Counted from the stretch's first letter, positions 22,990 to 35,960 are shown. The stretch: 64,000 nucleotides of DNA from Candidatus Limnocylindria bacterium (GCA_038248895.1 JBBRWZ010000001.1:7760-71759); one strand, 5' to 3'. Notes: generated by a model not told the origin, from the sequence alone. Numbers and translations are program-made.

Positions 22990-23280
22990 ACGCTGCAGGT
23001 GCCTCGCACGTTCGAAATATCGACCGATGTGCGCGGGAAATCCCCGGTGCGAGCGGTTCGTTCGAAATATCGGTCAGGTGCGCGCACGAGCGCCGCGCGT
23101 CGGTGGGGCTCACGCACGCTGGCGTTCGAAATATCGGCCAAACCGCGCGCCTCGGTGGGCTCGCGCACGAATCGGGCGATATATCGAACGGGCGGCGGGC
23201 GGCGGGCGACGCAACGGCGGCGGCGGGCGGCGGGCGACGGAACGGCGGCGGCGAGCGGTGGGCGACGGCGGCGGCCAATC
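22990..23280 (+). repeat. Repeat element, copy A. Four TTCGAAATATCG-type boxes at 23011, 23061, 23125, and 23177 (the last in inverted CGATATATCGAA form), followed by a GC-rich tandem-repeat tail (GGCGGGCGACGnAACGGCGGC x2).
   Basis: AT-rich 12-mers stand out against the GC background. Box spacing is 50/64/52 nt. Homologous to copy B at 35690-35960. Confidence 0.75.
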
Positions 23281-23297
23281 CTCGCCCGCACATCGGT

Positions 23298-25256
23298 CTA
23301 GTCCTTGGCGTCCGCCTCGTCGAAGAGGTACGCGATCTGGTCCGCGTAGCGCTCCTTCACGACCCGCAGCTTCACCTTCAGTGACGGCGTGATCTCCCCC
23401 TCCTCCTCCGAGAGGAGGCGTGGCAGGAGCGCGACGCGTCGCGGCCGCTCGTAGTTGGCGAAGTCGTCGAGGAGGCGGCGCACTTCGCCTTCGATCAGCT
23501 TGATCACGGGCCGCTGCTCGACCAGCTGCTCCGGCGGCATCTCGGCCAGGTCGTGCTGCGCCGCCCATGCGCCGAGCTCTTCGAAGTCCGGCGCGATGAG
23601 CGCAGCGGTGTATGGGTGCCCGTCGCCGAGCACCACGGCCTGGGCGATGTACTTGCTCGTCACGAGCGCGATCTCGAGCGGTGCCGGGGCGATGTTCTTG
23701 CCATTGGCGAGCACGAGGATGTTCTTCAGTCGATCGGTGATGCGGATGCGACCGATCTCGTCCAGCTCGCCGATGTCGCCGGTGTGGAACCACCCGTCGG
23801 CGTCGATGACCTTGGCGGTTTCCTCGGGCTGGTTGAGGTAGCCCTGCATCAGCTGCGGTCCGCGCGCCAGGATCTCGCCAGTGGCTGGATCGATGCGGAT
23901 CACCGTCTCCGCCACCGGCTTGCCGACGGTCCCGAACTTGAAGTCCTCCGGCCGGTTGATGCTGAGCAGCGGCGCGGTCTCGGTGAGCCCGTAGCCCTCG
24001 AGGATGAGCATGCCCATGGCGTAGAAGAACTCCCCCACCTCGCGCGCCAGCGGAGCGCCACCGGAGACGAAGTAGCGAACCCGACCACCGGTGCGGGCCG
24101 CGATCTTGTCGAAGACAAGGCGGCGGGCGACCGTCAGCTGCAGCGCCAGCCACGGGGAGTCGGGCCGGTGATCGAGGTGGTTCTGGTAGTGCCGCGTGCC
24201 AAGCGCTCGCGCCCAGCCGAAGATCCGCTGCCGCAGCGGCGACGAGCCCTCGACGGTGGAGATGACGCGCGCGTAGAGGCGCTCGTAGAGCCGCGGCACG
24301 GCGACCATGACGGTGGGCTCCACCTCGACCATGTTGGCGGCCAGGCGCTCGATGAGTGGCTCCGCGTAGGCGATGGTGCAGCCACGTCCGAGCGGGACGA
24401 TCATCCCCGCCGCGCGCTCGGTGGCATGGGCCAGCGGCAGGAAGCTGAGGAAGAGATCCCGATCGTTGAAGTCGATGGCGGAGATCGCCGCCTCGAAGTT
24501 GTGGAGCAGGTTGCCGTGCGTCAGCACCACGCCCTTGGGGTTGGCGGTCGTGCCCGACGTGTGGACCACGGTCGCGACCCGGTCGCGCTCGATCTCGTGC
24601 CAGCTCCGCTCCCATGCACGCACCTCGCCCGGCTCGGCATCGGCGAGATCGAAGATGGCATCGAAGCTGACGGCGCCGGCGGGCAGCTTGCCCCGATCGT
24701 CGATGACGATGACGTGCTCGAGCGTCGGGCAGTCACCGCGGACCTTCTCGACCTTGGCGAACTGCTGCTGGTTCTCCACGAAGACGGCGCGGGCGCGGAC
24801 GTTGTTGATGACGTACGCGACCTGGCCCGGCTCCGACGACGGGTAGATCGGGCAGGTGACGGCGCCCAGCGACATCGCCCCGAGGTCGGCCGTCAGCCAT
24901 GCCGGCCGCGTCCGGCTCATGATGCAGACCGCGTCGCCATCGCGGATGCCCAGGTGCTTCAGGCCCAGCGCCACCTGCGTCACCCACTCCCACATCTCGC
25001 GGTAGGTGATGCTGCGCCACACGGCGGCGGTGTCCGCCTCCGGCTCGGCGCCACCCATCGGGCGCCGCGCCCGTGGCAGCTTCCATCGCAGCGCCTCCTT
25101 GCCGGGCTGCCGCTTGACGGTTCGATGGACGAGATCGACGACCGAACGGGCACGGAGCTCGTCCGGCAGAGTCAGGGGCTCGTAGTCCGTCTCGAGGCGC
25201 GCACCGGTGCGAGCGGCTCCGCGCTCGGCCGGCGACGCGGCCGTGGGGGTGGTCAT
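23298..25256 (-). CDS. Long-chain fatty-acid--CoA ligase (AMP-dependent synthetase)
   Basis: 652 aa. AMP-binding signature (SGTTANPKGVVLTHGNL) and C-terminal motifs of the FadD15/long-chain ACSL type. Confidence 0.85.
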   Translation of the reverse strand: MTTPTAASPAERGAARTGARLETDYEPLTLPDELRARSVVDLVHRTVKRQPGKEALRWKLPRARRPMGGAEPEADTAAVWRSITYREMWEWVTQVALGLKHLGIRDGDAVCIMSRTRPAWLTADLGAMSLGAVTCPIYPSSEPGQVAYVINNVRARAVFVENQQQFAKVEKVRGDCPTLEHVIVIDDRGKLPAGAVSFDAIFDLADAEPGEVRAWERSWHEIERDRVATVVHTSGTTANPKGVVLTHGNLLHNFEAAISAIDFNDRDLFLSFLPLAHATERAAGMIVPLGRGCTIAYAEPLIERLAANMVEVEPTVMVAVPRLYERLYARVISTVEGSSPLRQRIFGWARALGTRHYQNHLDHRPDSPWLALQLTVARRLVFDKIAARTGGRVRYFVSGGAPLAREVGEFFYAMGMLILEGYGLTETAPLLSINRPEDFKFGTVGKPVAETVIRIDPATGEILARGPQLMQGYLNQPEETAKVIDADGWFHTGDIGELDEIGRIRITDRLKNILVLANGKNIAPAPLEIALVTSKYIAQAVVLGDGHPYTAALIAPDFEELGAWAAQHDLAEMPPEQLVEQRPVIKLIEGEVRRLLDDFANYERPRRVALLPRLLSEEEGEITPSLKVKLRVVKERYADQIAYLFDEADAKD

Positions 25257-25281
25257 GATGGGCGGCGCCTCCTCGGGGCTG

Positions 25282-34937: not shown

Positions 34938-34941
34938 GGTC

Positions 34942-35682
34942 ATGGAGTTCATCGGACGTGTCCTCGCCTGGATCGTCGATCCAGCCAGCTGGACCGGCAG
35001 CGACGGGCTCGGCATCCACGTCTGGGAGCAGCTGGTCCTCAGCTTCCTGGCGCTCGTGGTCGCCATCGCCATCGCACTGCCGCTCGGCCTGCGCATCGGG
35101 CACACCGGGCGCGGCGCCAACGCGGTCATCTGGACAGCCAACATCGGCCGCGCCGTGCCGTCGCTCGGCTGGATCGGGATCTTCTTCCCGATCGTGCTGC
35201 TGCTGCGCACCGGCTCCGGCGGCTTCTGGACGTCACTGATCGCCTTCGCCCTGCTCGCCATCCCGCCGATCGTGACGAACACGTACACCGGCATGCGCGA
35301 GGTCGATCGGGATCTCATCGAGGCCGGTCGCGGGATGGGGATGCGCGAGCGCGACGTCGTGACCCGGGTCGAGATACCGCTTGCGCTGCCGGTGATCCTG
35401 GCGGGAGTGCGGACCTCGGCCGCGCAGACGATGGCGACCGCCACGCTCGCCGTCGTGGTCGCGGGCGGGACGCTCGGCGTCCCCATCCTGCAGGGGATCA
35501 GGGGCGGTGACGACGTGAAGCTGGTGGGCGCGGCGCTCCTCGTGACGCTACTGACGCTTGCCACCGAGTTCGGGTTCGGCGCGCTCCAGCGGGCCGCGAC
35601 GCGACGGAGCAACGCCGCCGCCGGCCACCGTCCGTTCAAGAACGCCGGCGAGGTGCCACTGCCGCCGGCGGGCCCCATGTGA
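34942..35682 (+). CDS. opuCD: Osmoprotectant ABC transporter permease, second subunit
   Basis: Paralogous BPD permease. ATG at 34942 with a TGAGG Shine-Dalgarno sequence. An alternative GTG at 34927 would overlap opuCB by 11 nt. Confidence 0.8.
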   Translation: MEFIGRVLAWIVDPASWTGSDGLGIHVWEQLVLSFLALVVAIAIALPLGLRIGHTGRGANAVIWTANIGRAVPSLGWIGIFFPIVLLLRTGSGGFWTSLIAFALLAIPPIVTNTYTGMREVDRDLIEAGRGMGMRERDVVTRVEIPLALPVILAGVRTSAAQTMATATLAVVVAGGTLGVPILQGIRGGDDVKLVGAALLVTLLTLATEFGFGALQRAATRRSNAAAGHRPFKNAGEVPLPPAGPM

Positions 35683-35689
35683 CGACCGA

Positions 35690-35960
35690 CCCGATCCCGT
35701 GGCCCCGTGTTCGATGTATCGAACAATTTGAGCCAGACGTGGGCGGCGCGTGAGGTTTGTTCGAAATATCGGTCAGCGGTGAGCGTGAGGCCTGCGGCTG
35801 CGCGCGGCTCCCGCACGCCAGCGCTCGATTTATCGGTCACACCCCACGCGACGGCCCTGAACTGCGCGAATCGGTCGAAATATCGAACGCGGCGGCGCGA
35901 ACGCGGCGCGAACGCGGCGCGGGGCGCGGTGGGGCGCGGTGGCGGCGACGGCGCAAACCG
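35690..35960 (+). repeat. Repeat element, copy B. Boxes TTCGATGTATCGAA (35710), TTCGAAATATCGG (35760), TCGATTTATCGG (35825), and TCGAAATATCGAA (35875), then a GC-rich tandem tail (CGCGAACGCGGCG x2, GGGGCGCGGT x2).
   Basis: Box spacing 50/65/50 matches copy A. Overall identity with copy A is about 75%, and the orientation is the same. It sits inside the opuC operon between the last permease gene and the substrate-binding gene. Confidence 0.75.

Follow-up and report, generated by a model that had tools for sequence, protein, structure and literature searches.

Why does a GC-rich bacterial chromosome carry, 12.7 kb apart, two segments of regularly spaced AT-rich boxes? The question arises in a stretch of 64,000 nucleotides (hereafter the window; positions count from its first letter) from Candidatus Limnocylindria bacterium (GCA_038248895.1 JBBRWZ010000001.1:7760-71759), a member of an uncultivated class of Chloroflexota that is abundant in soil and freshwater. 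A first-pass annotation of the sequence had picked out the two segments, here called copies A and B, as diverged copies of one repeat element. We consider it probable that they belong to a dispersed family of non-autonomous foldback repeats in Ca. Limnocylindria and related Chloroflexota, a form of selfish DNA resembling repetitive extragenic palindromes (REPs), bacterial interspersed mosaic elements (BIMEs) and miniature inverted-repeat transposable elements (MITEs). At the level of sequence comparison, the elements fill sites that are empty in orthologous loci, mostly just 3' of stop codons, and have occasionally destroyed a gene. The family is new by comparison with Rfam, plasmids, phages and the literature, where we found nothing relevant on the motif or on MITE or REP elements of Chloroflexota. 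To our knowledge, thorough study of extragenic palindromic repeats has been confined to Proteobacteria, whose systems rely on REP-associated tyrosine transposases (RAYTs).

The two segments are not a product of chance. With up to two mismatches allowed, the window holds 10 matches to the motif TTCGAAATATCG; dinucleotide shuffles average 1.0 +/- 1.0, and 0 of 100 shuffled sequences attained that number. Copies A and B account for nine of the ten, and the same scan showed no isolated boxes elsewhere in the 64 kb. A repeat finder placed four boxes in each copy, start-to-start distances being 50, 64 and 50 in both, and the spacers align as well, with 79% column identity in MAFFT and 69% identity over 248 nt in blastn. 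The shuffle test, the shared layout and the aligned spacers thus bear out the original reading of two diverged copies of one element, alike well beyond the 12-mers, with four boxes at conserved spacing. The shuffle test and the presence of this layout in other genomes exclude chance or low complexity, and the conservation of spacers between copies excludes a CRISPR-like array. Both copies end in a GC-rich tandem-repeat tail, as had been described; the GC content, given as 73% for the genome, measures 70.8% in the window.

Further comparison changed the picture of the element in two respects. The first-pass annotation had seen no terminal inverted repeats, but copies A and B each align to their own reverse complement (blastn): boxes 1 and 4 are mirror images, as are boxes 2 and 3, around a central inverted repeat of the GTGAGCG...CGCTCAC type (GGTGAGCGTGAGG...GGCTCCCGC in copy B). 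It had also counted two copies, and a third, degenerate one lies between them. The parts of the three copies are the following (HMM, hidden Markov model; TRF, Tandem Repeats Finder):

22945..23013, + strand: AHSA1/SRPBCC gene remnant, about the first 17-23 codons, immediately 3' of arsR (translation MTTMATTTQGSATVTLQ... versus MTTATSSGTATVTLR... of the related locus L144)
23005..23196, + strand: copy A core (family HMM match 23004-23196, E 7e-43)
23011-23022, 23061-23072, 23125-23136 and 23177-23188, + strand: copy A boxes, spacing 50/64/50
~23076-23122, + strand: copy A central inverted-repeat segment, from the sequence
23189..23275, + strand: copy A G-rich tandem tail (TRF: 23191-23275, 28-bp unit x3.1, direct repeats)
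27499..27701, + strand: third, decayed copy, from the gap between the 3-hydroxyacyl-CoA dehydrogenase (3HCDH) and MeaB genes into the called MeaB 3' end (family HMM match ~27499-27676, E 2e-5)
~27499, 27549, 27611 and 27661, + strand: degenerate boxes of the third copy, spacing 50/62/50
27669-27701, + strand: tail of the third copy, CGGGGG x5.5 (TRF)
35683..35966, + strand: whole 284-bp block at the copy B site, directly 3' of the opu permease stop codon, from empty-site comparison
35679-35682 and 35963-35966, + strand: (G)TGA flanks of the copy B block, from the sequence against empty sites
35703..35894, + strand: copy B core (family HMM, E 4e-42)
35710-35721, 35760-35771, 35824-35835 and 35874-35885, + strand: copy B boxes, spacing 50/64/50
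35884..35947, + strand: copy B GC-rich tandem tail, GCGGCGCGAAC x2.7 then GGGGCGCGGT x2.6 (direct repeats; TRF gives 35892-35921 as an 11-bp unit x2.7 and 35921-35947 as a 10-bp unit x2.6)

We then asked whether these copies are ancestral or inserted, using orthologous loci. At the copy B site, the gap between the permease and substrate-binding protein genes is 418 bp in the window and 122-140 bp in five orthologous opu loci (L115, L116, L117, L140, L141), and the permease keeps its full C-terminus. Empty loci have ...G TGA GCCTTTCAC..., and the window reads ...G-TGA-[284 bp]-...G-TGA-GCCTTTCAC, a clean junction by comparison with these five loci. No target-site duplication had been noticed before, yet against the empty sites copy B is flanked by a (G)TGA direct repeat, only 3-4 bp long, that could be chance. 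A longer duplication of ~27 bp was considered and set aside, the similarity being too weak. At exactly the same point, L142 carries a different and larger insertion (~565 bp, five boxes), also flanked TGA...TGA, which means either repeated targeting or an old insertion precisely lost in other lineages. The L142 insertion opens with ~300 bp of other DNA (L142:9303-9600) that has direct repeats of its own (...gtcggtcacctgcgcgcctggttcgcgtttgacc / ...ctcggtcatctgcgcttgtggttcgcgttagcc) ahead of the five-box array and may represent a second repeat type.

Copy A tells of a more destructive event. In L144, the closest relative (its adjacent fadD protein is 84% identical), fadD is followed by a convergent, intact AHSA1 gene of 165 aa and then by arsR. 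In the window, the likeness to this AHSA1 gene is confined to ~17-23 N-terminal codons and ends where box 1 starts, an alignment which shows copy A to have replaced most of the gene. Copy A therefore occupies a gene remnant, not the simple gap between two convergent stop codons that had been described. L143 lacks both arsR and AHSA1; with the intact gene of L144, this marks the arsR-AHSA1 pair as a variable cassette. The suggested link to the local ArsR regulator does not hold, as family members adjoin unrelated genes in many genomes and the cassette itself varies among relatives; an ArsR operator was rejected on the first of these grounds. A fifth partial unit in copy A, proposed at 23272-23298 from direct and inverted repeats, is more likely the ancestral fadD-proximal flank, since L144 has similar sequence there.

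The third copy is orthologous to a better-preserved element in the 3HCDH-MeaB gap of L142 (L142:913-1098, E 7e-14), the two aligning along their length; in L143 this gap is only 80 bp and the element is absent. Three of the four box cores of the third copy are substituted (CATGAATCG, CGACTGATCG, CGATGAACCG), and only the fourth (CGATGAATCG) fits CGA-N4-TCG, which argues against purifying selection at that locus.

L143 and L142 share the window's gene order across the 12.7 kb between A and B. The two copies are therefore not the ends of a mobile unit, and a composite transposon or island was rejected because the interval is ordinary syntenic core genome. The L143 locus covers two of the three sites, and both lack an element. 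The elements are absent from ~88 kb of relatives' loci that span at least one of the three sites (L115-L117, L140, L141, L143-L145), and two of the three sites are occupied in L142, which makes the occurrence of the family sporadic among lineages. Altogether, these alignments show all three window copies to be inserted DNA. The filled and empty orthologous sites, together with the decayed copy, indicate passive insertions and not local regulators. The first-pass annotation held that the element does not look like an insertion sequence (IS) or a MITE of a known type; its presence or absence at orthologous sites, the disrupted gene, the dispersal with genome-specific subfamilies and a mirror symmetry like that of BIMEs, MITEs and paired REPs (REPINs) argue otherwise.

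We further investigated how far the element extends beyond this genome. Family HMMs built from 8 and then 23 copies found at least 38 elements in at least 24 Limnocylindria/Chloroflexota loci, all with the same boxes and spacing. An initial pattern scan of a genome collection was loose, and the matches listed were mostly AT-rich noise, the high-GC ones among them coming from metagenome-assembled genomes (MAGs) of Limnocylindria/Chloroflexota with the 50/64/50 layout. A stricter three-box pattern, applied to soil metagenome contigs and viral contigs, found further copies in the former and zero matches in the latter; nor did plasmids, phages or viral contigs match the element itself. The loose pattern also caught an unrelated tandem array, six TCGAWWTATCG motifs at an exact 57-bp period, on a Muribaculaceae contig of 66% GC (L053:3328-3623).

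The 23-copy alignment defines an element of ~190 bp whose full-form box is GTTCGATATATCGAAC and which as a whole is an imperfect mirror palindrome. Four CGA-WWWW-TCG cores, their spacing (+/-1) and a central GCGTGAG...CTCACGC are invariant; the GC-rich spacers are otherwise poorly conserved. Similarity stops a few bases beyond boxes 1 and 4, which leaves the tails outside the consensus. The subfamilies correspond to three box classes, set apart by symmetric changes in the bases next to the boxes: GTTCGA..TCGRNC (found in the window and in several MAGs), GCTCGA..TCGAGC and CCGA..TCGG. The element is at most 70 nt from a stop codon in 16 of 18 loci, and in several loci box 1 follows the stop by only 12-30 nt; the neighbours are unrelated housekeeping genes, including ABC transporters, ClpB-like, 5'-nucleotidase and MFS genes. 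An all-against-all comparison of open reading frames (ORFs) around the copies revealed no transposase, only ABC ATPases and MFS genes recurring, and no autonomous IS was found in 149 fetched loci (L numbers), plasmids, phages and viral contigs.

The inverted symmetry raises the possibility that the element acts as RNA. Copies A and B are each predicted to form one long hairpin, stronger than shuffled sequence (z -4.6 for A, -3.9 for B); across the 23 copies, full-length folds have z-scores of -0.8 to -6.1, mostly -2.4 to -6 and below -2 in 21, and folds limited to a 45-nt span are mostly not significant. Along with the position 3' of coding regions, and inside an operon, this would suit a transcribed structure, either a small RNA or a 3'-end stabiliser, processing site or terminator-like barrier as proposed for REP and for ERIC (enterobacterial repetitive intergenic consensus). 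Such a role is nonetheless very unlikely. Mismatches that G-U wobble could accommodate are equally frequent on the two strands (114 versus 117) and fewer than transversions (405), as in random decay; the RNAalifold consensus is weak, at only -10 kcal/mol; and orientation relative to the upstream gene is mixed. The structured-RNA gene raised in the first-pass annotation thus gains no specific support. The Rfam comparison that it had proposed matched no family to either copy: nothing reaches the gathering threshold, and at E up to 10 there is only microRNA-hairpin and SAM-IV noise far below it. A promoter and terminator search of both copies gave nothing of note, the sole site being a terminator-like match in copy B at chance frequency. 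A simple hairpin, moreover, would not need strict box sequence and spacing.

What, then, is the symmetry? In mirror register on the alignment, 65.8% of cells pair, against 33-41% with the register slid and 61.2% with partners shuffled within columns. The consensus of the family thus accounts for most of the symmetry, and the modest within-copy pairing excess, or co-variation, is concentrated beside the box cores and corresponds to the difference between box classes. The arms are ~64% complementary. We conclude, as far as sequence can tell, that the symmetry is a DNA-level feature of the element, with no sign of RNA under strand-specific selection. A protein-coding repeat was also rejected: ORFs of 118 and 111 aa cross A and B in the same frame, but they have no Pfam match and the 50/64-bp spacings shift the frames of the boxes.

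The tails vary from copy to copy. All three window copies have a G-rich tail 3' of box 4. Counting TRF arrays of period >= 5 and score >= 40, tandem repeats lie within 110 nt outside an end in 13 of 38 elements against 7% for random placement, a comparison partly confounded by setting intergenic against mostly coding DNA. The units often hold the outer half of the terminal box: the first unit of copy B repeats the CGAAC outer half of box 4, and units in copy A start with (C/G)AACGG, resembling its outer end. Beside CCGA-class elements, the tails are GCCGAA x10.8, TGCCGA x12 and GCCGA x6.8. Tails abut elements outside the window at:

L146:6837-6901
L135:1143-1231
L008:6821-6882
L098:2481-2510 and 2682-2719

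These variable tails look locally generated, and may be a stutter of the junction between box and flank during insertion, repair or replication. Tails abutting many copies could also point to a minisatellite of the type of mycobacterial interspersed repetitive units or variable-number tandem repeats (MIRU/VNTR), in which the boxes arose by tandem duplication in situ of a 50-64 bp unit and no pre-formed element was inserted. Boxes 1-3 are indeed repeated directly (GTTCGAAATATCGG); five boxes occur in L142, and two elements stand side by side in L105. This origin is nevertheless highly improbable. The four-box 50/64/50 unit with its central motif recurs at unrelated loci and genomes, which independent local duplication would not reproduce, and the spacers are not copies of one another. 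TRF likewise reports no tandem array for the four-box core, in which 50 and 64 alternate and the spacers are unrelated.

Which protein, then, might handle these inserted elements? In metagenome contigs L128 and L135, one gene sits exactly between two elements. Its product has an XRE-type helix-turn-helix (HTH) followed by an unassigned C-terminal part of 130 aa. Genes of this kind have elements on both sides in four genomes (L128, L135, L146 with two paralogues, and L147):

L128:1781-2506, - strand: bracketed gene
L135:294-863: bracketed gene
L146:6001-6591: bracketed gene
L146:3036-3704, - strand: bracketed paralogue
L147:6001-6582: bracketed gene

In locus L146, taken from a 2-Mb contig, the gene lies between elements at 5635-5813 and 6632-6811, and a paralogue 2 kb away, 52% identical, between elements at 2861-3048 and 3787-3976; these four are the only elements of the 12.6-kb locus. 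L147, L148 and L149 encode an identical protein with identical element matches, the gene being flanked on both sides in L147, which also has a truncated paralogue between partial elements. The family comprises 495 homologues at E <= 1e-5, the named ones from Limnocylindria or Chloroflexota. The bracketed loci are syntenic, with a sigma-54 response regulator, an MFS-DUF5317 gene and an HD-domain protein.

The AlphaFold model of the protein, made with a 55-sequence alignment (mean predicted local distance difference test score, pLDDT, 89.8), has an XRE HTH domain followed by an alpha-beta-beta-beta-alpha-beta domain. E119, D130 and E143 are invariant in the alignment. This predicted core, with conserved acidic residues on strands 2 and 3, is what defines the PD-(D/E)XK fold, and no NCBIfam or PADLOC model covers the domain. 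The boxes are near-palindromic, as noted from the outset, which makes them plausible sites for a dimeric DNA-binding protein, with half-sites about one helical turn apart; such a protein would move or maintain the elements. Because its genes are bracketed by elements, as RAYT genes are by REPs, we infer that the best candidate is this vertically inherited fusion of an XRE-type HTH with a putative PD-(D/E)XK-fold nuclease. If the bracketing has been retained from one ancient event, its retention is notable beside the decay of the third copy in the window.

The same data could be taken to mean that the boxes serve the host: a dimeric regulator, such as the XRE-HTH protein in the role of repressor only, would use them as operators or as sites that organise the nucleoid, and the elements would be kept because they regulate or insulate the genes around them. 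The boxes, palindromes of 10-16 bp, have strictly conserved cores and spacing despite diverged spacers, and their flanks co-vary symmetrically. The distance of 80-190 nt by which elements precede the HTH genes would suit operators, and the HTH domain resembles those of HipB, ClgR and restriction-modification (R-M) controller proteins, which bind palindromic operators. We regard host-serving arrays as unlikely all the same, as most copies lie just 3' of stop codons and not in promoter regions, beside functionally unrelated genes, at orthologous sites that are usually empty; one copy destroyed a gene, the boxes of the third copy have decayed, and the 64 kb hold no isolated boxes. LexA, NrdR, parS and dif-like sites were rejected for lack of a motif match and because single boxes are absent outside elements in the window.

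Our tentative proposal is that the four-box elements and the HTH-nuclease form a partnership like that of REPIN and RAYT, but with an enzyme unrelated to RAYT. The nuclease, site-specific, present as a single copy and vertically inherited, would recognise the palindromic boxes as a dimer and would propagate or maintain the non-autonomous foldback elements that populate Limnocylindria genomes; the tandem tails beside them would be scars of its cutting and of repair. The units of element, HTH gene and element could be the autonomous form; they sit at a conserved syntenic position.

Several points weigh against selfish insertion, against this partnership or against both. The 64-kb window has no transposase and no homologue of the HTH-nuclease. 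The four bracketed cases may be one ancestral arrangement retained, and bracketing could equally reflect autoregulatory operators or an insertion hot spot. Orthologues of the HTH-nuclease always stand beside CCGA-class boxes and the L146 paralogue beside GCTCGA-class boxes, yet the truncated L147 paralogue stands beside CCGA-class boxes, which breaks the match between paralogue and box class and leaves the argument from specificity weak. The copy B insert has DNA outside the family consensus at both ends, 27 nt at the left and ~70 nt at the right, and its flanking repeat is very short. A target-site repeat is seen at one site only, as (G)TGA at copy B and TGA in L142, copy A being accompanied by a deletion. 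The window copies are also old, as judged by the 69-79% identity of A and B and the imperfect complementarity of their arms.

How does the family compare with known repeats? REPs are often paired in inverted orientation, giving a larger hairpin, and lie mostly 3' of coding regions, between co-directional or convergent genes (PMC3733652). The present elements resemble them in function, being short palindromic units dispersed extragenically, mostly 3' of genes and able to fold into larger hairpins. Tagged REP superfamilies consist of 20-40 bp palindromes with GTAG or CGTC unpaired at one end (PMC3733652), whereas the bases flanking our boxes are (C)GTT, GCT or C, never GTAG or CGTC, and the palindromes measure 10-16 bp. 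The boxes are also AT-rich, perfect or near-perfect palindromes, unlike the GC-rich, imperfect 20-40 bp hairpins of REPs, and come in fours at fixed 50/64/50 spacing. In accounts of Enterobacteria and Pseudomonas, at least, RAYT is a single, vertically inherited associated gene flanked by REPs, and the proposed HTH-nuclease arrangement mirrors this. RAYT is a Y1 (HUH) transposase, however; no transposase-like ORF lies beside any examined copy, and the sole repeat-flanked gene family found is the one combining an HTH with a predicted PD-(D/E)XK fold. Other REP classes also have no known enzyme (PMC3733652). As the elements do not fit the sequence definition of tagged REPs and have no RAYT, we describe them as working like REPINs, BIMEs or MITEs, not as members of these groups.

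A second comparison is with the modular intergenic elements of 100-300 bp, such as BIME of E. coli, RIME (rhizobial intergenic mosaic elements), ERIC, Correia/NEMIS and pneumococcal BOX, which join conserved palindromic modules by linkers. Their module number varies, they are often co-transcribed, and some contain protein-binding sites such as those for IHF. Our elements have no sequence relationship to these, and the set of four boxes with its strict spacing is distinct; we know of no mosaic intergenic repeat family described from Chloroflexota. Like MITEs, the elements are small and without coding capacity, are present or absent at orthologous sites, occasionally disrupt genes and, at copy B, have a short direct repeat. 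Their ends are inverted repeats in that box 1 and box 4 mirror each other within a mirror-symmetric whole, the boxes being self-palindromic and also internal. They differ from MITEs in that no parent IS with matching ends was found in the loci, plasmids, phages and viral contigs searched, and in the non-consensus DNA that accompanies the insert. The boxes also recall the operators of XRE dimers (HipB, ClgR, the C-boxes of R-M controllers), which are palindromic, occur in multiples and have half-sites separated by about one helical turn. Such operators belong to the promoters of a small number of target genes and not to a dispersed 190-bp unit, and the proteins have no fused nuclease-fold domain, unlike the candidate protein here.

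The repeat alone is thus a familiar sort of selfish intergenic DNA; the fixed four-site geometry, the half-box tails and the bracketed HTH-nuclease set it apart. The elements account for oversized intergenic gaps, the truncated AHSA1 gene and altered gene 3' ends in Limnocylindria MAGs, and are likely to break short-read assemblies. They should not be annotated as local regulatory sites of arsR or of the opu operon. They also offer a testable case of how extragenic repeats might arise and persist with machinery other than RAYT, and the candidate protein is a possible new site-specific DNA-binding nuclease.

By Pfam, the gene order of the window around the copies is glutamate dehydrogenase, thiolase, arsR, copy A, acyl-CoA synthetase (fadD), acyl-CoA dehydrogenase, 3-hydroxyacyl-CoA dehydrogenase, the third copy, MeaB, a B12-binding protein, GTP cyclohydrolase I, two unassigned genes, an opu-type ABC ATPase, two permeases, copy B and an OpuAC substrate-binding protein. 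The closest homologues of the proteins bear the names Candidatus Limnocylindria or Chloroflexota. The longest thiolase ORF (21379-22722, - strand) overlaps the arsR ORF (22589-22942, + strand) by ~130 bp; as its Pfam match begins at residue 57, translation of the thiolase probably starts further into the gene. Elsewhere in the window, at 49356-49423 (- strand), one Rfam match exceeds the gathering score: ASdes (RF01781, 50.1 bits), known as a small RNA of Mycobacterium tuberculosis. In an apparent Chloroflexota genome, this match may merely reflect conserved desaturase coding sequence.

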